Positions 208 to 25,410 of a DNA stretch of 30,394 bases are shown in pieces; position 1 is the stretch's first letter, and each line of letters begins with the position of its first letter. Below the pieces are notes generated by a model. The model did not search any database and was not told the DNA's origin. It saw only the letters and a list, made by a program, of their open reading frames with translations. The DNA is taken from contig DASWGO010000292.1 of NCBI GenBank assembly GCA_036393695.1, positions 1 to 30,394 on the forward strand, given 5' to 3'. The stretch comes from Thermoplasmata archaeon. GTDB lineage: Archaea > Thermoplasmatota > Thermoplasmata > RBG-16-68-12. Both the position numbers and the translations under genes were made by a program.

Positions 208-1590
208 TCATGCTTGCCCGACGAGCTCGAATCCATCGAAGGCCATCGGAGGGACGTAGGCGCAGCCGGGCGCCGTCAGGAACGCGTGGGTGGGCGTCAG
301 CTCCCGCCCGACCCCGACGACGTTCTTGAGTCCGTCATAGAAGTTCCCGGTCAACAGGGCGACCTTCACGTGGTCCGCGAGCTCGCCCTTCCGGATCAGG
401 GTCGCGTTGCGGACCTCCATCGCGAACGATCCGGAGAATGGGTTCACCTCCGGCGCGGCGAACTTCTCGACGTACACGCCGGAATCGACTTCTGCGAGGA
501 GCGCGTCGAGGGACTTCCGCCCCGGCTCCACGACGAGGTTCGACGGCTCCGTCTCCGCGGGCTTCGTGTACGCGCCCTCGACGGTCGCGACCGCCCGCCG
601 GTATCCGTTCCCGGGGGGCACGCCGATCAGCGCCGCGTGCTTGCGGTCCGCGAAGAAGCCTTTCAGGGTGCCGGCCTCGACGAGGGTCCGGTCGCGGGTC
701 GCGTTCCCTTCGTCGTCCGCGACGCCGGACGCGAGACCGCCGGGCATCCGCGGCCGGTCGCGGATCGTGACGCCGGCCGACGCGATCTCCTGGCCGACCT
801 TCCCGGCCCATGGGGAGCGGCCCTTGTGGACGTCCTCGCCGTTCACCGCGCTGCCGACCGTCGTGAGGAAGACCTCTCCGAGGTCCAACGGATCGAGGAC
901 GGCGATCCCGGGGAGCTTGCCCTTGAACGCGCGGGCCTTCAGGTTCGCGGCGGCGCGCCGGGCCACGGTGGCGCCGAGGTGCGCGAAATCGATGGCCCGG
1001 ATCGAGGTGTTCATCGCCTTCAGGATGCCCTCTCCGAACTTCCCCTTCGACCCGCACTTCGCGGTCAGGTAGGCGAACACGAGCGTGCCGCGGTGGTTCG
1101 CGAGGACGTCGTTCGAGTTCGCGATCCGGAACGCGTACTCCTGGATTCGAAAGATCGCCTTCGGGACTGAGGTCGCCTTCGACTCCGTGACGGCGTCCGT
1201 GAAGGTCGTCGCGGCCTCGAGCAGACCGGCGACCTCCATCGCCGCGGTCGGCGCGTCCCAGGCCCCGCTCACTTCGCCTTTCCCGGCTTCCGTCGGCAGG
1301 CCGGAGAAGTCCGGGTCCTCGGGAACGCATTTCAACCCGGCCATCGCCGCCGCCACCGCCGAGCGGACGTCCGCGGGCGAGGCCAGAGTCGTCGCCGAGA
1401 ACGCGACGCGTTTCGCCTTCGCCGCTCGCACGCCGAGGCCCGTCTCGCTCCGATCCTCCGCGACCTTCGGGACGTCGTCTTCGATGTAGACGGACCGCGA
1501 GGTGAAGGCGATGGCGTAGGCTTCAGCGGCGTCGGCGCCCTCGGACCGCGCCCGTCGCACCGCGTCCGGCGCGAGGTCGAGCCCGTCCAC
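208..1590 (-). CDS. pmbA: TldD/PmbA family protein, PmbA (TldE)-like subunit
   Basis: 460 aa with N-terminal AEAY and GLGVR motifs, a DDEG-x(5)-TLVEAGTL segment, G-x-F-A-M near the C-terminus, and no HExxxH. Starts (GTG) 1 nt after the tldD stop. Confidence 0.88.
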   Translation of the reverse strand: MDGLDLAPDAVRRARSEGADAAEAYAIAFTSRSVYIEDDVPKVAEDRSETGLGVRAAKAKRVAFSATTLASPADVRSAVAAAMAGLKCVPEDPDFSGLPTEAGKGEVSGAWDAPTAAMEVAGLLEAATTFTDAVTESKATSVPKAIFRIQEYAFRIANSNDVLANHRGTLVFAYLTAKCGSKGKFGEGILKAMNTSIRAIDFAHLGATVARRAAANLKARAFKGKLPGIAVLDPLDLGEVFLTTVGSAVNGEDVHKGRSPWAGKVGQEIASAGVTIRDRPRMPGGLASGVADDEGNATRDRTLVEAGTLKGFFADRKHAALIGVPPGNGYRRAVATVEGAYTKPAETEPSNLVVEPGRKSLDALLAEVDSGVYVEKFAAPEVNPFSGSFAMEVRNATLIRKGELADHVKVALLTGNFYDGLKNVVGVGRELTPTHAFLTAPGCAYVPPMAFDGFELVGQA

Positions 1591-1591
1591 G

Positions 1592-2974
1592 TCAGCCGCC
1601 TCCGACGACGATCTTGCATCGCATGTACGGTCCCCCGGCGGCCACGGGAACGTAGTCCTCCTCGCCTTTCCCGCACGAGCCGCCGTCGAGGGAGATCTCC
1701 TTCGACACTCGGTCGACGCTGTTCAGGATCGAGAGCGCGTTTCCGGTCAGGGTCATCCCCCGGACGCGTTCCCCGACCTCGCCCTTCGTGATTCGGAATC
1801 CGGATTGGGTCACGGCCTGGAACGAACCGCCAACAGGGTCTTCCATCCCGCTGATCCATTTCCGCGTCAGGACGCCGGACTTCGTCTCCTCGAGGATCTC
1901 GTCCTTCTTGTCGCGGCCCGCGCCGAAGTACGTGTTCGTCATGCGCACCCAGACCCGGCGGCCGAAATCCTGCGCGCGGCCGTTGCCGGTGGGTCGGGCC
2001 TTCAACATGCCGGACGTCTCGAGGCTGTGGAGGAAGCCGCGGTAAATCCCGCGGTCGATGACCGTCGTCTTGTGGGCCGGGGTCCCTTCCGCATCGAACG
2101 GGATGGAGCCGTGTCCGCCCGGATAGGTGCCGTCGTCATACATCGAGACCAGCGGGGATCCGACTTTCTTTCCAACTTGATCGGTAAGGAAGGAACGCTT
2201 CTTGACGATCTCATCGCCCTCGGACGCGTGACCCATCACCTCGTGCGCCAGGAGGCCGGAGACCCCTGGATCGGTCACGACCGTCATGAGCCCGGACGGC
2301 GGCTTCGCCGCGACCAGCATCTCGACCGCGTCTCGGGCGACCCCCCGACCGAACTCCGCGAGGTCGAGCGCCTTCACGAGTTCCCATCCCGTGGTCCCGT
2401 CCCGGAAGTCGTGCGCGGCCTCCCGGCGGTCCCCTTCGCCGGCGACGGCCTGGCCGGCGATCCGGATGCGGACCTCCCGCCATTGCAGGCATGCGCCCCA
2501 GGTGTTCGCGAGCTCGAAGGTCCAGTCGGAGTCGGAATACGAGGCGTTCGTGTTCGCGACCTCGTCCCGCTTCTGGGCGCGGCACACCTCCATGGCGGCC
2601 GCGACCTTGTCCTCCCCGGACACGTCCCGCGGCTCGATCCGGACCTTCGGCTCCAGGGTGATCGCGGTGGACGGCATCTTGCGGAGCTTCGACGTCGGCA
2701 CGCCCGCCGCGGCGCCTGCGCGAGCGATCGCGACCGCTTTCCGCGCGGCCTGGACCGCATCCCCCGACCGACCGGACGTCCCGGAGGCGTAGCCCCACGC
2801 CCCGTCGAGGAACGCGCGGACGCCCCAGCCGCGACGACGAACCTCGTTCACGCTCTGGATCTGGTCGTTCGCAACGCGGACGACGAACGCCGTGCGGTCC
2901 TCCGTGCGGACGTCGCCGAACCCGGCGCCCGCTTTCTCGAGGGCCCGTACCGCGGCGGACATGAACTCCGTCAC
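1592..2974 (-). CDS. tldD: TldD family metalloprotease
   Basis: Zinc motif LLAHEVMGHASEGD, plus DDGT, FDAEG, TGNGRAQ, VRMTNTY and C-terminal GSCGKG. GTG start at 2974; alternative ATG at 2962. Confidence 0.92.
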   Translation of the reverse strand: MTEFMSAAVRALEKAGAGFGDVRTEDRTAFVVRVANDQIQSVNEVRRRGWGVRAFLDGAWGYASGTSGRSGDAVQAARKAVAIARAGAAAGVPTSKLRKMPSTAITLEPKVRIEPRDVSGEDKVAAAMEVCRAQKRDEVANTNASYSDSDWTFELANTWGACLQWREVRIRIAGQAVAGEGDRREAAHDFRDGTTGWELVKALDLAEFGRGVARDAVEMLVAAKPPSGLMTVVTDPGVSGLLAHEVMGHASEGDEIVKKRSFLTDQVGKKVGSPLVSMYDDGTYPGGHGSIPFDAEGTPAHKTTVIDRGIYRGFLHSLETSGMLKARPTGNGRAQDFGRRVWVRMTNTYFGAGRDKKDEILEETKSGVLTRKWISGMEDPVGGSFQAVTQSGFRITKGEVGERVRGMTLTGNALSILNSVDRVSKEISLDGGSCGKGEEDYVPVAAGGPYMRCKIVVGGG

Positions 2975-3475: not shown

Positions 3476-4345
3476 TCACTTCAGAGCCCGGATCGCCGCC
3501 GCGAACTCGGGTGCGACACTGACCTTCGTGTGCGGCGAGAGGACCGTGTCCGTGGCTATCACCTCGTCGCAGACCTTCAGATTCGCCTCGGCCGGGCCGA
3601 CGAAGAGGCCGTGGACGCATGCGGCGATCACGCGCTGTGCGCCTTGGACCTTCAGCTCCTTCGCCGCCGTCGCAATCGTGCCGCCCGTCGAGATCACGTC
3701 GTCCACGATGCCGACGGACTTGCCCCGGACGTCGAGCGCCTTCGGCTCAATCTTCACCGTGTACGAATCGAGGCGCTTCTTCACTAGGAAGTCGAACGGG
3801 ACACCGGCGACCGAGGACGCCTCCTTCACCAGACGGAGCGCGCCCTGGTCGGGCGCGAGGAGCACGTCGACCTTCGCGGATCCCAGGTACCGGCCGATTG
3901 CCGGCATGCCGCTCACTTCGCGGGTGGGGAGCGGGAACGTCTTGAGGATCTCCCGGTTGGCGGGGATCGCCATTGTCAGGAGTTCGTCGCAGTCGACCGC
4001 GATGTGCTTCGCGATCGTCTTCGCGGAGACAGCCTCTCCCTCGAGGAATCGCTTGTCTTGGCGGCCGTAGCCATAGTACGGGACCACGGCGGTAAGACGC
4101 CGAGCACCCATATCCCGGATCGCGTCGGCCAGGAGGAACAGCTCGACGATCATCGGGTCGGGGTGCGTCGTCTGGACGAGGACCACATGCTCGCCCGAGA
4201 CGGGGCCCAGCAGGCGGACGTACCGTTCGCCGTCGGGGAATCCACCGGGATGCTTCTCGAAGGCGACGTCGACGAAACCGACGGAGAGCTCATGGGCGAT
4301 CCCGCGAGCTAGAGGGACCGACGCAGAGCCGCCGACGACCTTCAT
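3476..4345 (-). CDS. prs: Ribose-phosphate pyrophosphokinase (archaeal class III-like)
   Basis: Motifs FPDGERYVRL, VPYYGYGRQDKRF and IVDDVISTGGT. Start reassigned to ATG 4345 (MKVVGGSAS), 289 aa; the track's extension to 4498 overlaps the next gene. Confidence 0.95.
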   Translation of the reverse strand: MKVVGGSASVPLARGIAHELSVGFVDVAFEKHPGGFPDGERYVRLLGPVSGEHVVLVQTTHPDPMIVELFLLADAIRDMGARRLTAVVPYYGYGRQDKRFLEGEAVSAKTIAKHIAVDCDELLTMAIPANREILKTFPLPTREVSGMPAIGRYLGSAKVDVLLAPDQGALRLVKEASSVAGVPFDFLVKKRLDSYTVKIEPKALDVRGKSVGIVDDVISTGGTIATAAKELKVQGAQRVIAACVHGLFVGPAEANLKVCDEVIATDTVLSPHTKVSVAPEFAAAIRALK

Positions 4346-4375
4346 GGAGGGCCCGGGCGCGTCGTATGGGATGTG

Positions 4376-4433
4376 GATATATGAATCGTCCGACGTCTCG
4401 CGACCGCGATAACCGGCGGCGAGCTTTCTTATA
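4376..4433. promoter_or_regulatory. Divergent TATA-like boxes for prs (-) and the archaeosortase (+)
   Basis: Minus strand ATTCATATATC (4376-4386) and plus strand TCTTATA (4427-4433), each about 30-35 nt before its ATG. Confidence 0.5.
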
Positions 4434-4465
4434 CGCTCCGGAAGGCTGCGTCGAACTCGACCGTC

Positions 4466-5725
4466 ATGGAGATCATGCGCTGGGTCGCCGCGTTGCAACG
4501 CCGACGGCGGACGATGATCCTCGTCGCCCTCGTGACGACCTTCGCGGGCGTTGCCCTGGTCCTTAATCAGCCGGAACGGACATCTCTGGCTTGGGTCGGC
4601 ATCCCTCTCGTTGCCGTAGGCGCGGCGATGCTCGTTGGAATTGTGTGGCCCGCCGGAACGAGGCTGCCGGAGGCACCGCCATCCCTGGCCTCCACACTGA
4701 TTCGACGCGCGACCTGGAACGGAAGGCTGGTGCGCCTCTTTCCCATGGTGGGCGTGATGATGCTCGCCGCGGACCTGCTGTACAACCTCAAGCTATCCGC
4801 GTCGCCCGCGCTCCAAACGGAAGACACGATTGTCATCCTGGCAGCGTGCGTGTTCATCGTCTACGGATTCGTGCCGCCTCAGTTCTCCCGGGAGCGGGAT
4901 TTCGTCCTCACGTTCGTGGTCGCCCTCAACGCCATCCTCGTCGTCCCCTTGCTCCTCGCGCGAGCCTGGGAGGCCGACTTCGAACGATCGGTCGATTTCT
5001 ACTCGTGGGTCGCCCTTGCACCTCAGACGAGTGCGGTTCTGCGACTCGTCGGTGTTCAAAACACGATCCATCCGGTCACGGGTGCGACGGCTCCCGGCCT
5101 GACTTTTACACCGCAGCATGTGGGTGTGCAGGTGACGGTCGTCATTACGACGGCGTGCTCCGGGATCTACTCCTTCGGAATCTTTGCGTCAGCCTTCGTG
5201 GCCTTCGTGCTTACCGAGTTCCAGCGGCCGGCCCGGCGTGTGTGGCTCCTCCTCGGACTCGGGATGGCGACTGCGTACGTCGCGAACGTCCTCCGAATGG
5301 TGATCATCGTCCTGGTCGGCTATTACACCGACAGCACCGAGACCGACCTTCAGAACATGTTGATCGCGCATTCCTATGCGGGCTGGCTCATCTTCCTCGG
5401 ATGGATTGCGTTGTTTTGGGCGCTAATCTTCCGATTCCTACCAACCGAATCAGTCACCCGCAACGCCCAAACTCCAGCCGAGGTGGCCGGGCGACTTCGT
5501 TCTCGTTGTGGTATCTGCGGCGGAGCACTAACGCCATTGGCGGCCGCAATTCGGTGCACCTGCGGCTCAGTGCATCATGAGGCCTGCCTCCGTCGCACAG
5601 GACAATGCCCCGCGTGCGGACTGCCCGCCCAAAAAGACGGCGCGCTACTTACGATCCGTCCGCACAGGATTGAACTGCAAGGGTGGGTCGAACCCGAAGA
5701 TGCACCCGAGACGCGTCCGCGATAA
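4466..5725 (+). CDS. Archaeosortase/exosortase family protein (ArtC-like) with C-terminal C4HC3 RING-like zinc finger
   Basis: Multi-TM protein with the exosortase catalytic set: ITTACSG (Cys codon 5156), ANVLR (Arg 5294), HSYAGW (His 5369). The tail contains C-x2-C-x12-C-x-C-x4-H-x2-C-x6-C-x2-C (5507-5617). Confidence 0.88.
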   Translation: MEIMRWVAALQRRRRTMILVALVTTFAGVALVLNQPERTSLAWVGIPLVAVGAAMLVGIVWPAGTRLPEAPPSLASTLIRRATWNGRLVRLFPMVGVMMLAADLLYNLKLSASPALQTEDTIVILAACVFIVYGFVPPQFSRERDFVLTFVVALNAILVVPLLLARAWEADFERSVDFYSWVALAPQTSAVLRLVGVQNTIHPVTGATAPGLTFTPQHVGVQVTVVITTACSGIYSFGIFASAFVAFVLTEFQRPARRVWLLLGLGMATAYVANVLRMVIIVLVGYYTDSTETDLQNMLIAHSYAGWLIFLGWIALFWALIFRFLPTESVTRNAQTPAEVAGRLRSRCGICGGALTPLAAAIRCTCGSVHHEACLRRTGQCPACGLPAQKDGALLTIRPHRIELQGWVEPEDAPETRPR

Positions 5726-5885: not shown

Positions 5886-6869
5886 GTGTCTGGGAAGACG
5901 CCCGCCGATCCACCCAGAGTCCTCCATCTCGGTAACACAGCCAACGTCGCCGCTGAACTTCGCAACGGACTCAAATCAACTGGGGCTGCGGAATGCCTTG
6001 TGGTGGAGACGCAAGACAACAAGCTCCGGTTCGACGAGGACATTCGCCTCTCGTGGGACTGGGCAACTTCGCGATTAGCACGCGCAGGACGACACCTCTC
6101 TGAGCTAATCCTGTTGAAGAACCTGGCGAGTGAAGCGGACATCGTTCACATTCACCATACTGGCCAGGTGATGAACGTGCTTGCCAAATGGGCCCAGATG
6201 CACGGGAAGCGCATCGTTCGCCATTTCCATGGGCATGAAGTCCGCCATGGGAAAGTTTCGGAGGAGGTCCGCTTTGCGGACGCCGTCCTTGTCTCCACAC
6301 CAGACCTCTTGCGGTACGTGAGGGCGTCCCAGCCTCGGCGGCAGCCCGTATGGATTCCAAACCCTCGTCCATTCCCAGACTCGCGACCAGAACCCGCCCT
6401 AAGTCCTCCGCTCCGTATCGTTCACGCTCACCTGCGGAACCCCGTGTATGCTGACGTGTTTGGAACTGAGTCGATTCGGGCGGCAGTCAGCCGGCTCGCA
6501 GGTCAGGGGTACGACGTCATGCTTGACGAAGTCAGCGGTTTGACACATCACGACGCCATGAAACGGTACCGTGCCTGTCACATCGCCGTAGACAAGTTAA
6601 GGATAGGCTGGTACGGCGCCTTCGGGATTGAATGTCTGTCCTACGGCCTCCCAGTGTTGGCTGGTGTGTCCAAGGATTTGAGTGTTCTCCAGCCGCCGGT
6701 GCTCCCTACAACCGAAGAGACCCTCGAAGAGACCCTGGAGGAGCTCGTGATGGATGAGCGTTTGCGGGAACGAGTTGGACAGGAGCTTTTCGTCAGGGGG
6801 AGAGCCCAGCACGACACTCCAATCGTAGCCGCGAGAGTTTCTGAGATCTACCGGGACCTTCTTGCCTAG
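5886..6869 (+). CDS. Glycosyltransferase, GT4-like (GT-B)
   Basis: RVLHLGNTANVA, HFHGHEVR, VSTPDL, WIPNP and C-terminal GWYGAFGIECLSYGLPV. GTG start is uncertain. Confidence 0.8.
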   Translation: MSGKTPADPPRVLHLGNTANVAAELRNGLKSTGAAECLVVETQDNKLRFDEDIRLSWDWATSRLARAGRHLSELILLKNLASEADIVHIHHTGQVMNVLAKWAQMHGKRIVRHFHGHEVRHGKVSEEVRFADAVLVSTPDLLRYVRASQPRRQPVWIPNPRPFPDSRPEPALSPPLRIVHAHLRNPVYADVFGTESIRAAVSRLAGQGYDVMLDEVSGLTHHDAMKRYRACHIAVDKLRIGWYGAFGIECLSYGLPVLAGVSKDLSVLQPPVLPTTEETLEETLEELVMDERLRERVGQELFVRGRAQHDTPIVAARVSEIYRDLLA

Positions 6870-7040
6870 GCGTGTCCGAAAAGGCAGTCAATCGGATGGC
6901 GGTTCCGCCGGGCCAGGACGAAGGCCTGGCGAACTGGTTACTCAAATTCCACTTTTCCGGATGGAACCGAGGATTCTGCCCTGGGCTCGTTCCGGGCTGG
7001 ATTCCGGGGTCGATTGCAGGTGTGCTTCAAACGCGCGACT

Positions 7041-8285
7041 CTAAACCTTGGCGAGGTCCTCGTACAATGAGAGATACGCGCTCGCAACGATCCGAACGTC
7101 AAAGGTTGAGACAGCGAAAGCTCGGCATTGTCGACAAACTTCGAGATAGGCGTCACGCGAGTCTCGGAAGCGCCTGAGAACCTCCCACGCAGACCGCGGC
7201 GCGGCACGGTTGACGAACGGGGCAAGTTCAGCGGGCAGGGTCGTTTCGCTCGCCTCTTCAGAGTCCCGAATTCGAATCACGGGTCGTCCAGTTGCGAATG
7301 CCTCAAGGGTTGTTCGCGGGGTGCCGACTTCGTAGGGATCGACCATTACACTCGCCTGCCCAAGAACCGCGGCTACATCCTCGGGCGAGAGATTCCAGAA
7401 AATCGAGACGCGGGGATGAGACGCCAACTGGGAAATTGGCGCCGACATCGGATTATCACCTGGTTCGGCAGCCAAACAGAGGACCAATCGCGCCCATGGA
7501 GGAGCGCTCTCCCAGACCGCGATGACGGTGTTGATCCCTGGCTTGCCCGCACGGCCGACATAACAGACCACAAACTCCGGGCCGCTAGGTGGTTCAATGA
7601 ACCGGAACAGGTCGGTATCAATTGGGTTCGGGATGAACCGCACGAGCGTGTGCAGCTTTTCCTCCCGCAAACATCTTCTGGCATTCTCGTAACCACTTCG
7701 CTCGACAGCTACTACTGCCGCCACAGACCCCATTATCGCTGGCCCTCCGTTTCGTACGAATCTCTCATAAGATCCGGAGAACAGGGAGTGGTCGGTGTAC
7801 AGGCTCGCTCGAGCGGCTCGCGATGCACCGAAGACACGCCTTAAGACCATGGTATTGAACAACCCTCGAATGCCTGGCATGGCCGGATTGTATCTTCTTA
7901 GCCAGCCCAAACCGTGGTAGTGAACAACCGCACGCCCGTCCTCGTCGCGGACGTAGCGGGAGCGCACATCCTGTCGCGCGAGATTTGAAAGCAGCCCGAT
8001 GACACTTGAAGCATGTGCCGTAGGCATCAAAGAGATGATCGGGAAAGCCACTCGAAACCAAGAGGCGTCGGACGCTGAAACATATTGAACATCAATCGAA
8101 TTGGGAGGATTTTCCACAAGACGAGTTGAAGCAGCGGGTGCATCAACGAGCACCGTCGCGTCGACCGATGGCATCCGTCGAAGGAGCGTAGAAAGAGCCG
8201 TTTCAATCCCTCCGATCGACGAACCGAACACATCAGTAAAATGCAGAACTCTCAGACGAGCCCCGCGGCCCTCGCGGCCTCTCAT
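7041..8285 (-). CDS. Glycosyltransferase family 4
   Basis: VLHFTDVFGSSIGGIE, PNPIDTDLF, CYVGR, TTLEAFATGRPVI. Start reassigned to ATG 8285 (alternative 8336) because the track start overlaps the upstream gene. Confidence 0.82.
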   Translation of the reverse strand: MRGREGRGARLRVLHFTDVFGSSIGGIETALSTLLRRMPSVDATVLVDAPAASTRLVENPPNSIDVQYVSASDASWFRVAFPIISLMPTAHASSVIGLLSNLARQDVRSRYVRDEDGRAVVHYHGLGWLRRYNPAMPGIRGLFNTMVLRRVFGASRAARASLYTDHSLFSGSYERFVRNGGPAIMGSVAAVVAVERSGYENARRCLREEKLHTLVRFIPNPIDTDLFRFIEPPSGPEFVVCYVGRAGKPGINTVIAVWESAPPWARLVLCLAAEPGDNPMSAPISQLASHPRVSIFWNLSPEDVAAVLGQASVMVDPYEVGTPRTTLEAFATGRPVIRIRDSEEASETTLPAELAPFVNRAAPRSAWEVLRRFRDSRDAYLEVCRQCRAFAVSTFDVRIVASAYLSLYEDLAKV

Positions 8286-8310
8286 GGCGAACACGGGCCC
8301 CTCCGAGTCA

Positions 8311-9216
8311 TCACGAAACGTACTTGGCGTATTCATCAAGGATTCTCCTCGCAACAGCGCTTGGATTGTGAACGCGGCCAACATACTCACGACCACGATT
8401 CCCGAGCTCAGACCATTGATGCCGCGCGACCAGGATTTCTGACAGACGTTCCTCGAAAGACTTCGAAGAAACCGGGATGACCGGGCACCGATCAAAAAGC
8501 TCTGGATTAACAGACGAGAGCACGACGCATCCGAGCGCCATCGCTTCGACTGAGACCATGCCATAGGCTCCGTACTCGGTCAGCTGGTCGATGACTATGT
8601 CGCACCCTGCCATCAGCTGGACCGCTTCCCGCTGAGTGACACCCGAGACGAGACGGTATTCGAAGTCCAGAGAACGCTGCATCTCTCGGACCTTCCCGGT
8701 AATGAACGCCGTCCCCTTCTTGCTTGGAGTCGAGGGAAAGTGGCCAACAATAGGCTGGCCCGAATTCGCTTTCCTGACGAGTCGGGGAAGGGGATATGGA
8801 TTCGGAACCCAAATGGCACTCGGAGCCCAACGGCGCAAGTCCGGCGTGGCAACGAATTCACAGACCGCGAGATTCCGGAGTGCGTCAGAGATCCCCTCCC
8901 TCAAATCGGAACCATGATAGTGAACAAAGAACGGAGCGTTGCAGAGTCTTCTCAGGTATCGCGCGAACGGTCGAATACCGAAGTGAAAGTGGACGACGTC
9001 CGCCGCTCGCGACAACTTTGCGATGTGCGCGAAGTGAACGACCCGGGCGATTGAAGGAGTCTCGTGGTACAAGTGCAGCCTAAGGTCGCAGGGGAAATCG
9101 CCTTGCTCGGGCTCCAGCTCCACAACGATGGTACTGCATCGCTCAGATTCGAGGGCCCGAGCAATATTCCATGCTACGCCGGCTGTATTCCCGAGCTGGA
9201 GCGAGGCAAGAGGCAC
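8311..9216 (-). CDS. Glycosyltransferase, GT4-like (paralog of 5886..6869)
   Basis: LQLGNTAGVA, VHYHGSDLR, VATPDL, WVPNP, GAYGMVSVEAMALG. Confidence 0.8.
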   Translation of the reverse strand: MPLASLQLGNTAGVAWNIARALESERCSTIVVELEPEQGDFPCDLRLHLYHETPSIARVVHFAHIAKLSRAADVVHFHFGIRPFARYLRRLCNAPFFVHYHGSDLREGISDALRNLAVCEFVATPDLRRWAPSAIWVPNPYPLPRLVRKANSGQPIVGHFPSTPSKKGTAFITGKVREMQRSLDFEYRLVSGVTQREAVQLMAGCDIVIDQLTEYGAYGMVSVEAMALGCVVLSSVNPELFDRCPVIPVSSKSFEERLSEILVARHQWSELGNRGREYVGRVHNPSAVARRILDEYAKYVS

Positions 9217-9320
9217 AGAACGCGGATGAGCGGGACCGAATCATAGGCCTTTCGTTGCTCTCAGGAAGCGAATTGCACGGCGAATCTTTATCTTGCTTAG
9301 GCTGTTCGACGAAGACTTTG

Positions 9321-9803
9321 ATGGCAAATGGGCGGAAGGGTCCGAGACACCTTCGCGCAACTCTGTTTCTGCTGCCCGCGTTTTTCTCCCCCACCTCGTC
9401 TCTCAGAGCCGCCTTCCACAGACTCCGTGGAGTCGATCTTGCGCGCGACGTAGAGGTAGGCTATGAAGTTCTCTTCGACAATCTCTTCCCTGAGCGGGTT
9501 CATGTCCGGTCCGGTGCCACAATTTCAGCGCGGAGCACGATACTCGCTCACGATGAAGCAAAATCCTACGCTTGGGGAGGCAAAGAAGTGGTCGAGGACA
9601 CTTACATTGGGGAGGACGCGTTCCTTGGCATCGCAACCATCGTTCTTGCGGGCGTCCGAATTGGGGCGCGATCAATTGTTGGCGCTGGGGCCGTCGTGAC
9701 TGGAGACGTGCCACCGGACACGATCGCGGCGGGGGTCCCGGCGAGGATCGTCGGTCGCAAAGTCGTCGGCACAAGGCCTTTGGATGCTGGTTCTCGCGGC
9801 TGA
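9321..9803 (+). CDS. Hexapeptide-repeat (left-handed beta-helix) acyltransferase, probable sugar O-acetyltransferase
   Basis: IGEDAFLGIATIVLAGVRIGARSIVGAGAVVTGDVPPDTIAAGVPARIVG. Start reassigned to ATG 9321 (160 aa), downstream of a TATA-like CTTTATC. Confidence 0.85.
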   Translation: MANGRKGPRHLRATLFLLPAFFSPTSSLRAAFHRLRGVDLARDVEVGYEVLFDNLFPERVHVRSGATISARSTILAHDEAKSYAWGGKEVVEDTYIGEDAFLGIATIVLAGVRIGARSIVGAGAVVTGDVPPDTIAAGVPARIVGRKVVGTRPLDAGSRG

Positions 9804-9854
9804 AACCTGCCTCCGAGGATTTTTGTCATGGCCGCAGGGTGAAGAGCGGTGAAC

Positions 9855-10628
9855 ATGTCAGCTGAAACTACCCCGAAACTCGCCTCTATTGTAATCCCGA
9901 CCCTGAACAGACGCCTACTTCTCGAACGCCGACTTCCCATCATTTGCTCTGCAGGCTTTGACGAGGTCATTGTTGTGGACTCAACGCGGTCAATACCAGA
10001 GACCGAGAAAACACGCGAACTCTGTCTCCGCCTCGGTGCACGCTATGTTCCTGCAAGGCTGGGTAGAAGCGCCGCCCGGAACCTCGGTGCCTCGATCGCC
10101 AGCGCCGAGTGGGTCTTCTTCTGCGACGACGATGGATACGTTGTTTCGAAGATATCCCGCGAGGTCCTGCGCTCGGCGGCCCAAGGCTACGATGCGCTTG
10201 TCTTTGCCAACCATCTTGTTTGGATTTTTCGGCAGCCATTCTTCGTCGCGCTAGGGGGTTACAGGGAGAACCTTGTCGCCGGCGAGGATGATGACATTAC
10301 TCGGAGAGCTCTCGGGTCTGGCCGAGTGGGGTCGGCCGAGGGCATTGTTCAAGGCTATATCATCGCTCCCGATTCCGTCGAGCGGCACTCGGATCAATGG
10401 AGGAGACTTCGTAACCAGCTCGAGTACGGCATGACGATGGCGACATTCGCCCTTCAACATCCGAGCCCAAAATCCGTTATCTTGGCGTCCATCCGGAAGG
10501 TCGGTCTACTTGCAAAATCTCGAGAGGAGACAATCCGCCTGAGAATCGCGGAAATACTCATGCTCGGCCTAGGGATTTCCCTTACTCTGGCCCATCTTCT
10601 GTGGCGAAACGGGCTGCGATCGAAGTGA
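9855..10628 (+). CDS. Glycosyltransferase family 2
   Basis: SIVIPTLNR, DEVIVVDS, FFCDDDG (DxD) and LGGYRENLVAGEDDD; GGTGA SD immediately before ATG 9855. Confidence 0.85.
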   Translation: MSAETTPKLASIVIPTLNRRLLLERRLPIICSAGFDEVIVVDSTRSIPETEKTRELCLRLGARYVPARLGRSAARNLGASIASAEWVFFCDDDGYVVSKISREVLRSAAQGYDALVFANHLVWIFRQPFFVALGGYRENLVAGEDDDITRRALGSGRVGSAEGIVQGYIIAPDSVERHSDQWRRLRNQLEYGMTMATFALQHPSPKSVILASIRKVGLLAKSREETIRLRIAEILMLGLGISLTLAHLLWRNGLRSK

Positions 10629-10637
10629 GGGCACGGT

Positions 10638-12074
10638 TTACCTGATTACCATAGCGCTGATTTGCTTCATCGATGCCGAAAACTCTCCACCCGAAGTGGC
10701 CTCGAGAATACAGATGTACCCAACGACTCCAAGCACCGTGGCAATCAAGAGACTCACCAGACCAGGCGGAAAAACGAACAGAACGGTAGACATCCCAACC
10801 GCGGCCATCGCGGAGGCGAAGATCGGCTTGGAAACGACTCTCGCGACCTCTTGCCATCGCACGCCGACGAGCCGCCCGACAAGACGTGTGAGCGAGCAGA
10901 AGTAGACCAGCGCGGCTGCCACAGCCGCGACCGCGACCGACAAGAACGCTTTGTAAAATATCGCGCCGGCGAGACCGATCAAAAGGGCGAGCGCACCATA
11001 GGCATTTGACTTTGTTACAAGTCTTGCCTCACCCATGGCGAGGAGCGCGGAACTCGCCGGGACTGACAATGCAAACGCAAGCCCTCCGACGGAAAGCACC
11101 TGCATCACGGGAGCGGTCCCACTCCATCGTGCCCCTAGGATAATGCTCACAAAAGAGGGGGACAAGACGGCTATCGCTGCGGCCACGGGGAAGAGGAAGT
11201 AAGCGACGTATCGAATGGTAACTGCGTATCCACGCCCGAGTCGCTCCGGGTCCTTGTTCAAACGCGAAAACACAGGGAACAGGACAGTTTCTACGAGCGA
11301 CGAGGCGTTTCGAGGTACGGTAACCGCGAGCGAATACGAGAATGAATAGATGCCGAGGGCGGCAATCCCGAACGCGCCTGCTACCGCCGCATTGTCCGCG
11401 GTCACAAGCAGAAATCCGAAAACCGTCGCGATTGAGACAAACTTCCCCGAGGAGACAAGGGCTTTGGCGATATCCAACCGAAACTCCTTCTTGGTCTTGA
11501 CACGCATTATCAAGCAGACGGAAAAGGCGGAGGTCCAAGTAGAAACGAGCAAGCCCAAGGCTAGGCTCCAGAAGCCAAATCCAATCACCGCGAAGCAAAC
11601 GGCGCTCACGGGCCCAATCAACCGGCCAGCGGTATCCGCGACGGCGAGAGACCTGAAGTTAAGAGCTCGGGTGAGTGCTGCACGAGATCCGAATGAGAAT
11701 GCGGCTGCCGGAAAGATTGTGCTTAGCGCCGCAACGAGCCAGAGAAAGGATGGCATCGAAAACAGAAATGCGAACGCGCTAGCGATGATCAACGCGAATC
11801 CGGTCAGAAAGAGCGCGATCAACCAGCGCAGTCTAATCGCTGTCGGGAGGATGTTTTCGACTTCGTCTCGACGTATCACTTCGACCGTCAAGCCAAGATC
11901 CCCGGGTATTGCAACGAGAGCAATCGCGATCATTGCCAAGCCGAAGAGACCAAAATCGCTCGGTCCGAGCAATGTCGCGAGAGCTATGCCTGCGACTTGC
12001 GAAACCCCTGCGGAGAGCGCCTGCAAGGAACCAAGCCATCCGAGGCCGCGCACCAATGAACGGCGATAACTCAT
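10638..12074 (-). CDS. Wzx-type oligosaccharide flippase (MOP/PST family)
   Basis: 478 aa, many TM segments; N-terminal 'ALATLLGPSDFGLF', 'FGIAALGIYSFSYSLA', 'VLFPVFSR'; GGAGGT SD. Confidence 0.9.
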   Translation of the reverse strand: MSYRRSLVRGLGWLGSLQALSAGVSQVAGIALATLLGPSDFGLFGLAMIAIALVAIPGDLGLTVEVIRRDEVENILPTAIRLRWLIALFLTGFALIIASAFAFLFSMPSFLWLVAALSTIFPAAAFSFGSRAALTRALNFRSLAVADTAGRLIGPVSAVCFAVIGFGFWSLALGLLVSTWTSAFSVCLIMRVKTKKEFRLDIAKALVSSGKFVSIATVFGFLLVTADNAAVAGAFGIAALGIYSFSYSLAVTVPRNASSLVETVLFPVFSRLNKDPERLGRGYAVTIRYVAYFLFPVAAAIAVLSPSFVSIILGARWSGTAPVMQVLSVGGLAFALSVPASSALLAMGEARLVTKSNAYGALALLIGLAGAIFYKAFLSVAVAAVAAALVYFCSLTRLVGRLVGVRWQEVARVVSKPIFASAMAAVGMSTVLFVFPPGLVSLLIATVLGVVGYICILEATSGGEFSASMKQISAMVIR

Positions 12075-12154
12075 GGGTCGTGCGGACCTCCCTATCCTGC
12101 CAATGTGCCGAGCGTGGACTGCCCAGATCTAGGATAATCTTGCCTCTCCATGAA

Positions 12155-12976
12155 TCACACCGCTAGGCGTTCGTAGTATTGCGCTAACTCCCCGAGGGTA
12201 GCGAATTTGTAGCCCTCCCTCTTTGCTTGGGCAACGAACTCCTCCAGGACGCGAAGACGAGTGGGGGAAATTCGTTTCGGATGAGCTTGGATCACGAGAA
12301 GTCGATCTCTGCCGTTTAGATGTCGAGCAGCTTTCATCCAAGTGTCGGTCACAATGTCCAACTCAGAATTATCGAGCTTTGGCCCTTTGGCATACTCGAA
12401 AAAGAACCAGTCGTCGAGCTCGAAAACGGGTAATTCGACAACCCGGGGCGCGACTGGATAGGGGTGGGCAGACGCACGGCCTGACACCTCGCGGATGAGT
12501 GTCCGGGGATACGTTAGAAATGTATCACGAAAGGAGGTGCGTCGCCGGGAAAAAAGGTTCCAGGTCCGGAGCCAGAAGTCGTGCGATGTCCTGCTGCTAT
12601 CATACGTGAATCCTTCGAGCGAGAGGGCAGAGTAGAGGTTTTGGTCATGAGCTAAGTATGGAGCCCGAAAGCCTATTGGGCTCATACCAAGGGTCTTCTC
12701 AAAGGCAACTCTCATGGCCTTCAACCTGGCGCGTTGCACTTCTACCGGTCCGACGAAGGGTTCGTGAACGTCTCCGTGACCAGCGATCTCAATGCCCTGC
12801 TCTGCGAGGAAACTCATCTTGTGGGGACTGCTTTCGAGTGCTTGCGCTACCACAGGGATGGACATCGGCACGCTACAGCTATTGAGCGTTTCGCAGAGTG
12901 GGCGGAGGCACGACGCGATGTCCTCCAAGCCATCGTCGATATCCCCGGTTAGAGCAATCTGCAGTTGTCTCGCCAT
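12155..12976 (-). CDS. Polysaccharide deacetylase family protein (CE4/NodB-like)
   Basis: LTGDID, EIAGHGDVH (H-x3-H metal motif), GFRAPYL, YDSS, LVIQAHP. Confidence 0.85.
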   Translation of the reverse strand: MARQLQIALTGDIDDGLEDIASCLRPLCETLNSCSVPMSIPVVAQALESSPHKMSFLAEQGIEIAGHGDVHEPFVGPVEVQRARLKAMRVAFEKTLGMSPIGFRAPYLAHDQNLYSALSLEGFTYDSSRTSHDFWLRTWNLFSRRRTSFRDTFLTYPRTLIREVSGRASAHPYPVAPRVVELPVFELDDWFFFEYAKGPKLDNSELDIVTDTWMKAARHLNGRDRLLVIQAHPKRISPTRLRVLEEFVAQAKREGYKFATLGELAQYYERLAV

Positions 12977-12979
12977 CTT

Positions 12980-13756
12980 TCATCCCATGGGTCTCGCGGC
13001 GACGACCATTAGAGACTCGCCCTTGGCCCGGCTAACGTGCATGTCGAGCAAGGCAACGGTCATGAGAACCGGAAAGAGGAGCACCGCCAATGGGAAGGCA
13101 ACGCTCGAAAGCCTCTCGGAGCATAATGCCGCCGAAGCTCCCCATCTGCGCAGAATGGGGAAGACATGGCGAACCCTGAATCCGAAGCCTTGCAGCATCC
13201 CGGAGATGCGCTCAGGGAGGAACCCTGTCTCGACAGGAAGCCAAGTGAGTCCATCCGCCCAAACCGCTCGCCAGGTTGCTGGACAGATGATTAGCAGGAC
13301 GCCGGCTCGGGCTACCAAAGAAGCCACCTCTTCGATCACCTTGCTGTCTTGCCGAGCATCGCGCGCTATGTCCGAAAAGACGACGAGATCAAAGGTCCCA
13401 TATTTCCGTGCCGCTTGGATCGTGCCGGTCTCGAAAACCATATTTCGTAAACGTCCCTTCGCGGCACAGCCCCGATTGTGGTCTGTGATCTCTTCATATT
13501 GGTCGAGTCCGACGACCAGCGCCTCAGGAAACTGAAGGCTGAGGGGGAATGCAATCGGCGCGATGCCCCCTAACCAGCCTAGTTCCCCTGACCTCCCACA
13601 GCCTGCGTCCAGAATCCGCTTGGGGTAGGACCGCTGAAGGACTCGGCGGCAATGCAGCGATCGTAGCCTCGCTCGGATGTTTGGGTCCCCGAGGCAGAAA
13701 GCTCTGCCGGCGAACACTAGGAGCCGCGATGTTCGGTTCTTCCGGAATTCCCTCAT
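12980..13756 (-). CDS. Class I SAM-dependent methyltransferase
   Basis: RILDAGCG motif I, VVGLD, TFDLVV; ATGA overlap with the upstream GT4. Confidence 0.75.
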   Translation of the reverse strand: MREFRKNRTSRLLVFAGRAFCLGDPNIRARLRSLHCRRVLQRSYPKRILDAGCGRSGELGWLGGIAPIAFPLSLQFPEALVVGLDQYEEITDHNRGCAAKGRLRNMVFETGTIQAARKYGTFDLVVFSDIARDARQDSKVIEEVASLVARAGVLLIICPATWRAVWADGLTWLPVETGFLPERISGMLQGFGFRVRHVFPILRRWGASAALCSERLSSVAFPLAVLLFPVLMTVALLDMHVSRAKGESLMVVAARPMG

Positions 13757-14883
13757 GAAATCCCCTGGGGCTTGGACATGGCGCGGCTAATGGTTTCGAG
13801 AATCGCTTTCGCCCGCGATTCCCATGAGGCCAATCTCGCGTACTCAAGACCAATTCGGCTCATTTGCTCGCGTTTCTCTGAGTCCGCAAGAAGCACTTCA
13901 ACTGCACTGGCGAGCGTTTGAGCATTGTCGGCTTCAATGACAAGGCCAGCCTCTTGAACAAGGTCCGGGACTCCCGGCACGTTACTCGCTATCACCGGAC
14001 GTGCCATGGCCATGTATTCGAAAATCTTGAGCGGCGAAATTTCAATCAACTCGTTTCGCCCGCGCGAGAAAGGGGCGACGCAAATATCGCTCGCAGCGAT
14101 GGCAAGAGGGACCTGGGAGTGATCGAGCGGACCTGCCATGCGGACTGTGCCGATCAATCCTCGCGCTTCGATCCCACGTCGGATTGAATCGCGCAGGGGG
14201 CCGTCCCCGACCAGGACCCATAACAACCCGCGATTCCCCAGAAGACCCGCCGCGTCCAAGAGAGTTTCCAACCCCTGCCATGGAACGAGCTTTCCAACGA
14301 AAGTGACAATCCAACCGGTCTCGGGCCAGGATAGCGATCGGCGTGCTTCACGTACGTCAAGCGGCTTGAAAATAGATAGGTCTACACCATTAGGTACCGC
14401 TACGAATCGGCCTAGATCGAGTCCGGTCTCCGTGGCGATTGCCCTCGCCAGTCCGAGAGCAGGAACAAATATCTTCTTGCATCGGCGCAAGAGATAGCGT
14501 CGAAGCATCCTTCGTGGCCATCGAGGTCGTATGGACCCTGACTCCGATTCTTCCGACACCAAACCGTTGATCTCAAGAAAAAGAGGAATGCCCATTCGCC
14601 GGGAGACATAGAAACCGAGCTTTGGGCTCGAGCGCCGTTCATACACTATTTCGGGATGGAAGCGCGTCGAAATCCGCTGAACGTCCATTCTGGCGCCCCT
14701 TCCTAAGTTTCGAATAGCAGCGACCTCGAGTCCAGACTGCAAGCTCGAGACGGAACCTCCCGAAACCAATAGAAGCACGTGGTGACCGAGCGACGCGAAC
14801 GCGCTACAGATAGAGAGAGTGTGAACTGATTGGCCGTCCTGTTCGTCCAGGTTGACGTCTGAGGCCAAGAATAGAATTCGCAC
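13753..14883 (-). CDS. Glycosyltransferase family 4
   Basis: MRILFLA, VPNGVD, FVGKLVPWQGLE, SPLKIFEYMAMARPVIAS; AAGGAG SD before the GTG. Confidence 0.9.
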   Translation of the reverse strand: MRILFLASDVNLDEQDGQSVHTLSICSAFASLGHHVLLLVSGGSVSSLQSGLEVAAIRNLGRGARMDVQRISTRFHPEIVYERRSSPKLGFYVSRRMGIPLFLEINGLVSEESESGSIRPRWPRRMLRRYLLRRCKKIFVPALGLARAIATETGLDLGRFVAVPNGVDLSIFKPLDVREARRSLSWPETGWIVTFVGKLVPWQGLETLLDAAGLLGNRGLLWVLVGDGPLRDSIRRGIEARGLIGTVRMAGPLDHSQVPLAIAASDICVAPFSRGRNELIEISPLKIFEYMAMARPVIASNVPGVPDLVQEAGLVIEADNAQTLASAVEVLLADSEKREQMSRIGLEYARLASWESRAKAILETISRAMSKPQGIS

Positions 14884-14911
14884 AGCTACTCTCCTTTCAA
14901 GGGCTTCGGAG

Positions 14912-16117
14912 TCACTTGGAGACCAACCGATCGTAAAGCGCGCTCATCGCTTTCCCTGAGTCTTCAATTTTTAGATGTCTCCTGGCAAAGTCCGATGCTA
15001 CTAATGACAACTTGAGAAAGCTCTCTTCGTCCGTGAGTTTTCGGAGCCACTCATCCCAGAGATCGATTCGGTTCAACGGTATGGTTCCGCCTGCGCCAGA
15101 CCGTTGCACCAGCTCAGCGGTACCACCCATTGGGGTGCAAAGGACCGGTGTGCCAGTGGAAAGCGCCTCATGCACCACCAATGGAGAATTTTCGGGAATT
15201 AGAGAGGGGACAAGGAGAGCACGCGCTTCTGAAATCGCTCGGATCGTCTCGGTTCTCGACCGCTGGCCCAGGAAGTCGACGCGCGGATTTGGTGCACGCT
15301 CGTGTGTTGACCGAAGCGCCATCAACTCGGGTCCGCCGCCGACAAACGCAAACTCCGCGGTAGTCGGTATTGAGTTCCGAGAGGCGAGGTCCAGGACAAA
15401 TCTCGGATTCTTGTAGTAGACCATGCGGCCCGCCCAAACGAATCGGTGGGTTCTCCTCTCTGGAGGGTGAGGAATATTGCCCATGTCAATTCCAAGCGGA
15501 ATCACCTCAATTTTCGAGTTGGTCGAGAAGCCTCGACTCAGAAGCGCGTCCTTCATGTAGTTGCTCGGCGACACAAAGGTCGTAACCGACGACTCGAAAC
15601 GCGAGATCAGCTTTGCACGAAGCGTGAGATTCACCGAGCCGACTAATCGGTGGCCTGGGTCGAAGCAGCAGGACGGTTGGATCCGCGAACAGGCTTGATT
15701 CTTCGACGGGTCGTATAGAATCCCGCGATAGCAGACTGGCCAGTGGTCGTGGACGTGACATACGACTGGTGAGCGTAGCGAGAGTAGAAGCGGGTACATC
15801 ATTATTGTTGAGTTGATGTTGTGCAGGTGGATGACGTCATGCGCCCCGCGTTCCAGTTCGCGTGTCATTGCCTTTGCGAACGGGTTGAAGTTGTACCCGA
15901 ACAAATCAGACGTCAATTTCGGAAACGGTGGTTCGGATCGGAAGAAATGAATCGTAATACCATCACGGCGTTCCACGCGTGTCCTGCCGTGACCGCTTGT
16001 AAAAACTTCGACGGATAGGCCTCGTCGGGCAAGCTCCACGCACAAATCGTACGCAAAAAGCTCGGCACCACCGATTACCCGCGGAGGGAAAAAGTTAGTC
16101 ACCATCGCGACCTTCAT
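14912..16117 (-). CDS. Glycosyltransferase family 4
   Basis: MKVAMVTNFFPPRVIGGAE, HDHWPVC, PSLIPENSPLVVHEALSTGTPV. Start ATG 16117 overlaps the upstream stop (ATGA). Confidence 0.9.
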   Translation of the reverse strand: MKVAMVTNFFPPRVIGGAELFAYDLCVELARRGLSVEVFTSGHGRTRVERRDGITIHFFRSEPPFPKLTSDLFGYNFNPFAKAMTRELERGAHDVIHLHNINSTIMMYPLLLSLRSPVVCHVHDHWPVCYRGILYDPSKNQACSRIQPSCCFDPGHRLVGSVNLTLRAKLISRFESSVTTFVSPSNYMKDALLSRGFSTNSKIEVIPLGIDMGNIPHPPERRTHRFVWAGRMVYYKNPRFVLDLASRNSIPTTAEFAFVGGGPELMALRSTHERAPNPRVDFLGQRSRTETIRAISEARALLVPSLIPENSPLVVHEALSTGTPVLCTPMGGTAELVQRSGAGGTIPLNRIDLWDEWLRKLTDEESFLKLSLVASDFARRHLKIEDSGKAMSALYDRLVSK

Positions 16118-17184
16118 GTGAGCGCCTCGTACAGCCGCATCGTCTGTTGGGCGATAGAGGGCCAAGAGCGACTCTCCGCCATCCACTGCGCAGCCTTCCG
16201 CCCCATCGATAGGCGGGACTCGGGATTTTCGGCCAGGAATATCAGCGCGTCGGCGATGCCATCTGCGATTTGATCGAAGTCGGCACGCCGGACCACAACC
16301 CCGGTCTCCATGTCAAGGACGTCTTCGGCAAGCCCACCCACATCTGTAACAACCACTGGTCGCCCAAGCGATTGCGCGGCGATTGCGATTCCGCTTTGAG
16401 AGGCTTCGGTGTATGGGAGCACGACCGCGGCTGCTTTCCCAACTTCCTCAACAAGCTCAGCCGGGCTCACAAACCGGTTCACAATCTCAACACCCCCGAT
16501 TCGATCAATTAATCGAGCATAGGGGCTCAGATCCCCCTCGCCCACGATTCGGAAGCGCGGCTTCTGCACGCGTTCCCGAACGAGAGGAATCGATGCGAGG
16601 AAGTGCTCCAACCCCTTGTATCGGGTAATTCGGCCAAGAAACAGGAAGGTCCTCCCGTCAGCATCCGGAACGGCGGCGAACCTGCGGTAGAACGAAAACT
16701 CGCCGTGGGGGATAACATGAATCTTCTCGAGTCCTAGGCGAAAACGGCGCATCAGCATGTCTCTCTGCGTCCGACCGTGGACGACAATCGCACCGGCTCT
16801 CGCCGCAAAGATTGAGAGCGCCGGGAACGACCAAGGATCCGGGGATCCCTCGTGAGGGAAGGGATCGTGAACAGTCAACACGTACGGGTGCCTCAAGCGA
16901 TGGACGAAGGGAGCCCGCCAGGAATATGCGTTCTGAAAGTGAACCACGTCGCACCCTTTCGAAGAGATGGTCCGAAGAAGATGGATCTCGTTCCAGAGAC
17001 GCTGCCCGGAAGACCGCCCCGGCGTCCCCAACGCGAGCAAGCCGACCCTGTCGTCGAGAAGCGGCATGATTTGAGGAGCGAGCACGTCCCAGCATGGGAA
17101 CGACACACCCGCCCCGACCGCGAGCGCGTTCGCAAGCTGAATCGAATACTCAACCTGGAAGTTCGGGACCAAGATGATCCTCAT
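16114..17184 (-). CDS. Glycosyltransferase family 4
   Basis: TVHDPFPHEG, VIPHG, FLGRITRYKGLE, LPYTEASQSG, VTDVGGL. Confidence 0.9.
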   Translation of the reverse strand: MRIILVPNFQVEYSIQLANALAVGAGVSFPCWDVLAPQIMPLLDDRVGLLALGTPGRSSGQRLWNEIHLLRTISSKGCDVVHFQNAYSWRAPFVHRLRHPYVLTVHDPFPHEGSPDPWSFPALSIFAARAGAIVVHGRTQRDMLMRRFRLGLEKIHVIPHGEFSFYRRFAAVPDADGRTFLFLGRITRYKGLEHFLASIPLVRERVQKPRFRIVGEGDLSPYARLIDRIGGVEIVNRFVSPAELVEEVGKAAAVVLPYTEASQSGIAIAAQSLGRPVVVTDVGGLAEDVLDMETGVVVRRADFDQIADGIADALIFLAENPESRLSMGRKAAQWMAESRSWPSIAQQTMRLYEALT

Positions 17185-17235
17185 GCTTCTCCCCTTGCCG
17201 CAGCTCGCAGCCCGACGGCAACTCGAAGGAAGGAT

Positions 17236-19945: not shown

Positions 19946-19958
19946 GACATGCGTTCGA

Positions 19959-23463: not shown

Positions 23464-23467
23464 AGGT

Positions 23468-24436: not shown

Positions 24437-24593
24437 ACCGACTGCTCACCAGCGCATCCAAGCCGGTTCTATTTCTACCCGGTACCTGATATTCTGTAAC
24501 GTGAAAATGCCGTGACAGAGGTTGCTCAGGCCTATCACGTGCGATAGCGACCGGGAAAGGTACTTAAGTCCCGTTCGTAACCAATCGGTCCAG

Positions 24594-24725
24594 ATGCACG
24601 CGGAGAAGATTCGAACAGCGAACATTCCAGCGTTCCGGCTCGAACCGAAGGACGCCTTCATCGTCATTTCTCTGATCGGGGTAACCGCGTACGTCGTTGG
24701 TTTTCTCGTCGGCCTGATGTACTAA
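24594..24725 (+). CDS. Putative 43-aa single-pass membrane microprotein
   Basis: MHAEKIRTANIPAFRLEPKDAFIVISLIGVTAYVVGFLVGLMY; ATG about 25 nt after a TATA-like CTTAAGT; one hydrophobic C-terminal helix. It is short, so it could be spurious. Confidence 0.45.
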   Translation: MHAEKIRTANIPAFRLEPKDAFIVISLIGVTAYVVGFLVGLMY

Positions 24726-24795
24726 CGGCCGGCCAATCGTTCGGCAAATCGACCCGTAGAGAACGTAGATGAGTCGCGTCGGACATCCTCCCGGC

Positions 24796-25371: not shown

Positions 25372-25410
25372 CCAGCGAACCTTCATACTCCGGAGCCGGT
25401 TGCGCGCTCA

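Follow-up and report, generated by a model that had tools for sequence, protein, structure and literature searches.

In the 30,394-nucleotide window analysed here (contig DASWGO010000292.1 of a Thermoplasmata archaeon, assembly GCA_036393695.1), an uninterrupted open reading frame (ORF) at nucleotides 4466-5725 of the plus strand specifies an archaeosortase that continues into a C-terminal RING-type finger. Comparison with homologs and profile models showed the product to be an intact archaeosortase with eight transmembrane (TM) helices, a member of an ArtC-like subfamily that has no curated model, in which Cys231, Arg277 and His302 are predicted to face outward. The tail is a predicted binuclear finger of the RING superfamily, with a ligand order and spacing of the PHD/RINGv type and an overall similarity closest to RING-H2. 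The reading that we favour, and to which we give about an even chance, is that of a PEF-type surface-protein sortase with a cytoplasmic docking finger which is shared with a few other proteins and which, in this family, is not a canonical ligase dependent on an E2 (ubiquitin-conjugating) enzyme. The ATG start is matched by homologs that begin at the same position of the alignment, and the gene is laid out as follows.

4466-5725, plus strand: whole gene, ArtC-like archaeosortase with a C-terminal RING-type finger (419 amino acids plus stop).
4466-5440, plus strand: membrane core (residues 1-325), with eight TM helices, both ends inside and a large outer loop at residues 166-226, as placed by the AlphaFold2 helices, lysine and arginine counts and hidden Markov models (HMMs).
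5156-5158, plus strand: Cys231 codon (TACSG); this putative catalytic nucleophile sits where TM6 ends on the outer side; invariant in 59 homologs.
5294-5296, plus strand: Arg277 codon (NVLR); this conserved arginine of the active site sits where TM7 ends on the outer side; invariant.
5369-5371, plus strand: His302 codon (HSYAG), where TM8 starts on the outer side; invariant.
5441-5506, plus strand: cytoplasmic linker, flexible and basic, of variable sequence (residues 326-347; predicted local distance difference test (pLDDT) 49-73; family mean of Lys plus Arg 5.2).
5507-5617, plus strand: predicted RING-superfamily binuclear zinc finger with ligands in C4HC3 order (residues 348-384), including the sortase-specific loop L-[TS]-P-x-x-P-A-x-R.
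5618-5722, plus strand: C-terminal extension, unconserved and of low confidence (residues 385-419; pLDDT about 50), about 20 residues longer than in most homologs.

The core passed the cut-offs of Exosortase_EpsH (PF09721; 37.4 bits against 25.7) and of the exo_archaeo signature TIGR04178 (52.2 bits against 23). The initial annotation had recognized the protein from its set of Cys, Arg and His in the motifs TACSG, NVLR and HSYAG; the signature upholds the archaeosortase identity, and C231, R277 and H302 are indeed invariant in the 59 aligned homologs. In Haloferax ArtA the counterparts of C231 and R277, Cys173 and Arg214, are essential (PMC9263693). The best-scoring subfamily model was that of ArtC (TIGR03762), yet at 66 bits the protein lies below its cut-off of 100. 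Eight RING-tailed representatives, at 37-70 bits, were all under the same cut-off, and the RING-tailed sortases are therefore treated as a separate ArtC-like subfamily. TIGR04178 was matched only once in the source genome, which is 70% complete.

The AlphaFold2 model of the whole protein (mean pLDDT 83.8) contains eight long helices. Lysine and arginine residues number 20 across the five inside loops and 5 across the four outside loops, a bias also seen in the family means, and by the positive-inside rule both termini would consequently be cytoplasmic and the triad would face outward; the same rule places the finger inside the cell, as first proposed. No solved structure of the exosortase family was found by sequence search or with Foldseek, the tail alone giving matches.

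The tail reads C348-x2-C351-x12-C364-x-C366-x4-H371-x2-C374-x6-C381-x2-C384. The protein and its 120 best database matches were surveyed with a scan that tolerated ranges of spacing and either His or Cys at the sixth place; eight ligands in C4HC3 order were present in 114 of the 121 proteins, the listed matches all showing the spacing of the query, so that the order originally read from the one gene holds for the family. Of the remaining seven, six are truncated ahead of the tail or within it, and the C-terminus of the last is unrelated. Judged from these sequences, conservation of the eight ligands is far beyond chance. In an alignment of 59 rows the ligands, L355 and G367 are invariant, P357 and A361 are conserved in more than 90% of the rows, and the loop L-[TS]-P-x-x-P-A-x-R is nearly invariant in sortase tails. 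The residues concerned (L355, T/S356, P357, P360, A361 and R363) are conserved in sortase tails only, which suggests that this loop makes a specific contact.

In the full model residues 350-390 reach a pLDDT of 88-95 and fold into a pair of short strands plus a helix (beta-beta-alpha). A profile built from the 59 tails and compared with the PDB matched the RINGs of gp78/AMFR (E=5.6e-5, the best), HRD1, Arkadia, RNF24 and FANCL. When the tail model was searched with Foldseek, the top 50 were nearly all RING E3 ligases (probability 0.9-1.0, root-mean-square deviation about 2 Å over 47-52 columns, E=0.02-0.1). VIA-align comparison with 48,161 chains returned a list dominated by RING and U-box domains at Z of only 3.5-4.7, a low value that is expected for so small a domain. 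With matches almost exclusively to RING and U-box domains by all three approaches, the tail is better described as a RING-type finger than as a plain zinc ribbon.

Among the Pfam families, Prok-RING_1 (PF14446), reportedly the prokaryotic RING finger family 1 of Burroughs, Iyer and Aravind 2011, and zf-RING_2 (PF13639) matched 37 (best 6.3e-8) and 40 of the 59 tails, respectively, at E<=0.01. The tail of the query itself scored below the cut-offs of both (18-22 bits against 29.1 and 17-22 bits against 27.3). RINGv, or RING-CH (PF12906), was absent among the matches of the query at E<=10; the two have the C4HC3 order in common, but in RING-CH seven residues precede the His, as against four in the sortase tail. 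The spacing had been likened at the outset to Prok-RING_1 and RING-CH. The C1_1 model was weakly matched by 13 of the 59 tails.

Three positions are conserved as in E2-binding RINGs, namely I/V/L at 350, L/I at 375 and P382 (in C-P-x-C). The usual 'linchpin' position after the last Cys is occupied by Gly in 48 of the 59 tails. The sortase tails are basic, with a mean net charge of +3.2. Prediction of a complex of two copies of the tail gave a score of 0.00, which is evidence neither way on a homodimer.

The distribution of the fusion was followed in 300 genomes of the Thermoplasmata class, in which f-numbers denote family-level lineages. Most families of the class possess the sortase core. The tail was seen in the family of the source organism and in f2, f3, f5, f6, f7, f15, f18, f22, f23, f26 and f27, where identity of the core descends to about 30%; in the distant tails the spacing drifts (C-x2-C, last loop of 4-7 residues) and the eight ligands stay. 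The sortases of f9, f10, f16, f19 and f21 are tail-less, ending directly past the last helix. A tree built from the core only groups the tail-bearing sequences, from f1-f3, f5-f7, f15, f18, f22, f23, f26 and f27, in a single clade of 41 rows (support 96/85). The tail-less f9, f19 and f21 are nested within this clade and f10 and f16 lie beyond it, a pattern that takes three changes to explain, such as a single gain of the tail followed by two losses. By this phylogeny the fusion is old within the class.

The precomputed Pfam tables contain Exosortase_EpsH and Prok-RING_1 together in 4 of 120 homologs, and some homologs are named 'archaeosortase C (PEF-CTERM variant)' by JGI. In a literature search, with most subscription journals outside its scope, archaeosortases that carry a RING or zinc finger were described in none of the papers. 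The initial annotation, which knew of no described RING-tailed member, is in agreement with that search, although in the Pfam tables both domains already stand side by side in those four homologs.

In four large ORFs of the source genome the C-terminus consists of [IV]PEF, a hydrophobic segment and a tail rich in Arg. They are paralogous and of unexpected build: from the N-terminus, a KaiC-like ATPase domain is followed by a zinc ribbon, GRTNGL repeats, a single TM helix and then a large outer domain ahead of the PEF signal, and their large cytoplasmic N-terminal region includes an acidic segment. By their ends, these four giant proteins are likely substrates of the sortase.

C173:1693-8871, minus strand: PEF protein of 2393 amino acids.
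C354:155-4234, minus strand: PEF protein of 1360 amino acids.
C2:2-2896, plus strand: PEF protein, cut by the contig end.
C172:2-2791, plus strand: PEF protein, cut by the contig end.

The layout of these proteins is that of doubly anchored surface proteins whose ATPase lies in the cytoplasm. The family of the PEF outer domain has the same family-level distribution in the class as the sortase core: neither was found in f4, f12, f14, f17, f24, f25 or f29, the weak sortase matches in these seven carrying the E-values of tail-only matches. This co-distribution is supportive and not proof, related genomes not being independent samples. A link between the tail and this substrate family was considered and rejected, as the outer-domain family also stands beside tail-less sortases. 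Conserved C-terminal TM segments and basic tails, with motifs of their own, are shared within three further pairs of proteins of the source genome on C4, C5, C24, C156, C114 and C209 (GLDP...FGATA; VEPS.AD.LNTLS; IGF[IV]PDP). The ends of these pairs may be other anchor or sorting signals, though only one sortase gene was found.

The finger is not confined to sortases. The tail profile recovered 478 cluster representatives among 1.84 billion, in which the module, with the same spacing, ends proteins of 1000-4900 amino acids in one to four copies, follows the single TM helix of type-I surface proteins, and occurs in small proteins with 2-3 TM helices and in soluble tandem arrays without any. Across many of these proteins it sits just past TM segments. 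A search of proteins of 30-229 amino acids with words from the tail revealed no free-standing copy, although the profile search did yield small module proteins. Since the same module is carried by many unrelated archaeal proteins, an explanation by sorting only would be too narrow. Fusions of the module to an EMC3/TMCO1-like insertase of the Oxa1 superfamily, to a Na+/H+ exchanger fragment and to a membrane protein with a CarboxypepD_reg domain (P0205, P0260 and P0239) were observed in archaeal metagenome proteins.

Near-complete genomes of the genus have exactly three module proteins, namely the sortase, a rod and a DUF835 membrane protein, and all three are carried by the source genome. The rod, a soluble helical-repeat protein of about 1500 amino acids, combines a CARDB/Ig-like domain with a terminal RING module and is found in most families of the class, sortase-less ones included. 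Orthologs of the DUF835 protein, of 840-940 amino acids, are present in every near-complete genome of the genus.

C65:1703-5488, plus strand: rod of the source genome, cut by the contig end.
L035:1498-5982, plus strand, and L036:5703-10181, minus strand: further rods.
C140:812-3643 (locus L066), plus strand: DUF835 protein with a signal/TM segment, an outer domain, 3-4 TM helices, the RING (residue 705), another zinc ribbon and, at the C-terminus, the DUF835 domain.

A link between the tail and the rod was also rejected, the rod being found in f4 and together with tail-less sortases.

According to the reading favoured above, the sortase would cleave the C-terminal signal of PEF, TM helix and Arg-rich tail from the giant surface proteins, as ArtA does for PGF-CTERM, and the RING tail would, less surely, be a cytoplasmic protein-docking module. 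The flexible linker of about 22 residues would hold the finger beneath the membrane, and the finger would link the enzyme with a partner or scaffold in the cytoplasm that positions or regulates it. A comparable case may be the ArtA of Haloferax, which is recruited to midcell with PssA and PssD (PMC9263693). Docking of this kind would be shared with the other carriers of the module, among them the rod, the DUF835 membrane protein and the type-I surface proteins.

Several observations weigh against this reading. Zinc binding and the cross-brace pairing of the ligands we infer from the fold matches, and the docking role is argued by exclusion and analogy. Residues typical of E2-binding RINGs are conserved in the tail, with I/V/L directly behind the first Cys and Pro in C-P-x-C, and by these an E3 function stays conceivable. 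The PEF tails scored 17.3 and 13.5 bits with TIGR03024, for which the cut-off is 23. The PEF outer-domain family is also found in f9, f10, f16, f19 and f21, where the sortases are tail-less, and for this reason it does not explain the tail. The rod, finally, occurs in f4, in which the core was not found, and in the families with tail-less sortases, so that sortase and rod show no specific co-occurrence.

It is unlikely that the tail acts as a genuine RING E3, or as an adaptor akin to one, coupling sorting to ubiquitin-like or SAMP (small archaeal modifier protein) tagging of the cleaved stub, the substrate or the enzyme in the manner of Hrd1 and gp78. Its best sequence and fold matches are RING-H2 E3 ligases, gp78 and HRD1 included, and positions 350, 375 and 382 are those conserved in E2-binding RINGs, but the linchpin position is mostly Gly. 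In the sister families f2, f3 and f7, which belong to the same order, a UBC-type E2 (f3, 6 of 6 genomes; f2, 6 of 8; f7, 1 of 1) adjoins an E1 of the ThiF type and a JAB peptidase.

L067:4382-7560 and L068:4937-7228, plus strand: compact cluster of ThiF E1, UQ_con E2 (about 170 amino acids) and JAB/MPN in f2, f3 and f7.

No RING module lies within about 7 kb of this cluster. The genomes with an E2 have 6-7 RING modules and those without have 3-4, a weak trend in favour of an E3. Against this, UQ_con (PF00179), in a search that covered UBC-type E2 enzymes and not other E2-like families, was found in none of 25 genomes of the sortase's own family, of which several reach 90% completeness or more, nor in the source genome at its 70% completeness, nor in the f5 and f6 genomes searched, and in all three families the tail is kept unchanged. 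The coupling of sorting to ubiquitin-like tagging that had been suggested from the gene alone is weakened by this absence of a UBC-type E2 where the tail is strictly kept. Archaeal SAMPylation, as carried out by UbaA in Haloferax, runs without E2 or E3, which also counts against an E3. A canonical E3 role in the source organism is judged improbable to the same degree, though the module may have had one in its ancestry.

We hold it equally doubtful that the tail recognizes substrates from inside the cell, by binding the KaiC-like ATPase of the PEF proteins, their zinc ribbon, the acidic helix that follows, or the cleaved stub. The candidate substrates are unusual in their large cytoplasmic N-terminal region with its acidic segment, and the tail is basic; however, the same substrate family accompanies the tail-less sortases, a basic finger is unlikely to bind Arg-rich C-terminal tails, and many carriers of the module are no peptidases. 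Capture of substrates by contact between RINGs was rejected, since 29 large type-I proteins with a TM helix and a cytoplasmic RING have neither PEF nor PGF before the TM helix. In their 2011 abstract Burroughs, Iyer and Aravind reportedly proposed fingers of the B-box, AN1 and LIM types as partners of membrane-associated peptidases, and recognition of this kind has been suggested for treble-clef fingers that are joined to other membrane peptidases.

There is, similarly, little likelihood that the finger works without a protein partner, as a basic knob with two zinc ions that binds anionic lipids or stabilizes the last TM helix in the manner of C1 and FYVE domains. The net positive charge and the basic linker beside the membrane, the weak C1_1 matches of 13 tails and the preferred placement of the module just after TM segments would suit such a role. 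But the module also ends the soluble rod and occurs in soluble tandem arrays that have no TM helix, and matches to RINGs far outnumber those to C1 domains.

Quite unlikely, too, is a broader view in which the sortase is one of a so far undescribed set of archaeal membrane-tethered RING proteins, together with the EMC3/Oxa1-like insertase, the receptor-like DUF835 proteins, the type-I proteins and the rods, all acting as ubiquitin-like ligases or adaptors, with the tail tagging the cleaved TM stub or the enzyme for extraction and degradation. If this were true, the set would represent a prokaryotic forerunner of membrane quality control of the Hrd1/gp78 type, joined physically to surface-protein sorting, and sister lineages would still encode the E1-E2-JAB core of that system. 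Finally, it is extremely improbable that the cysteines form their pattern by chance, or a generic zinc ribbon without a specific fold, for although the query lies under the curated Pfam cut-offs for RINGs, the ligands are kept at fixed spacing in all but seven of the 121 proteins, six of those seven being incomplete, and the fold matches are almost exclusively to RING and U-box domains.

The reactions of archaeosortases take place at the outer membrane face, and to our knowledge nothing has been described of their positioning or control from inside the cell. A strictly conserved cytoplasmic finger offers a concrete handle for finding a partner of the sortase, and the fixed trio of module proteins per genome makes up a small network that can be tested. 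As the finger is kept in genomes in which no E2 was found and neighbouring lineages have one, it also provides a clean case for the function of RINGs before eukaryotic ubiquitin signalling.

Upstream of the sortase gene lies prs, transcribed divergently. The Pfam match of its product begins at residue 52 of the listed ORF, and the true start is for this reason probably M52.

3476-4345, minus strand: prs (ribose-phosphate pyrophosphokinase), conserved divergent neighbour, with the Pfam match from residue 52 of the listed ORF.
4346-4465, no strand: divergent intergenic region of 120 bp by its coordinates, presumed to be a shared promoter region.
208-2974, minus strand: tandem genes for metallopeptidases of the TldD/PmbA family (460 amino acids each).
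10638-12074, minus strand: Wzx-like flippase of the glycan island.
17236-19035 and 20957-22273, minus strand: long ORFs of the glycan island (599 and 438 amino acids) without a Pfam match at E<=0.001.

The prs gene is the divergent neighbour in 23 of 30 loci with RING-tailed sortases. No conserved downstream partner gene was found at the 30 loci, upstream prs alone being conserved, in a neighbour clustering that was noisy owing to spurious ORFs in high-GC DNA. Past prs lie a small membrane protein and the two TldD/PmbA genes. Downstream of the sortase, nucleotides 5886-25400 form a glycan-assembly island of about 19 kb with a G+C content of 55-58%, compared with 68% in the flanks. Its genes include many glycosyltransferases of family 4 (GT4) and one of family 2 (GT2), acyltransferases, among them a hexapeptide acyltransferase, a deacetylase and a methyltransferase. 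The island is not conserved beside the sortase in relatives and therefore looks variable and possibly acquired.

Four known systems invite comparison. With ArtC (TIGR03762) and the ArtA of Haloferax volcanii the protein shares the TIGR04178 signature, the core of eight TM helices and the Cys, Arg and His at the outer face, and the genome encodes large proteins that end in PEF, a TM helix and an Arg-rich tail, candidate counterparts of the PEF-CTERM (TIGR03024) substrates of ArtC. It differs in that the ArtC model has 274 positions and no tail, to which the present subfamily adds an N-terminal extension and the RING, and in the scores themselves (66 bits against 100 for the enzyme and 17 against 23 for the PEF tails). 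Prok-RING_1 (PF14446) ranks first or second among the Pfam families matched by the tails, in spite of the 18-22 bits of the query, which lie under the cut-off of 29.1. The giant helical-rod RING proteins end in the same module with the same spacing as the sortase tail, but are soluble repeat proteins of about 1500 amino acids and not membrane enzymes. The RING-H2 domains of gp78/AMFR and Hrd1/synoviolin are the best profile matches (E=5.6e-5 to 1e-3), have the beta-beta-alpha fold of the tail model and, like the sortase tail, are cytoplasmic RINGs that follow shortly past the last TM helix of a multi-pass membrane protein. Unlike them, the sortase tail is C4HC3, with C-x-C-x4-H, and not C3H2C3, its last loop is of six residues, the helix has no Trp, Gly stands at the linchpin, and the family that carries it is one in which no E2 was found.

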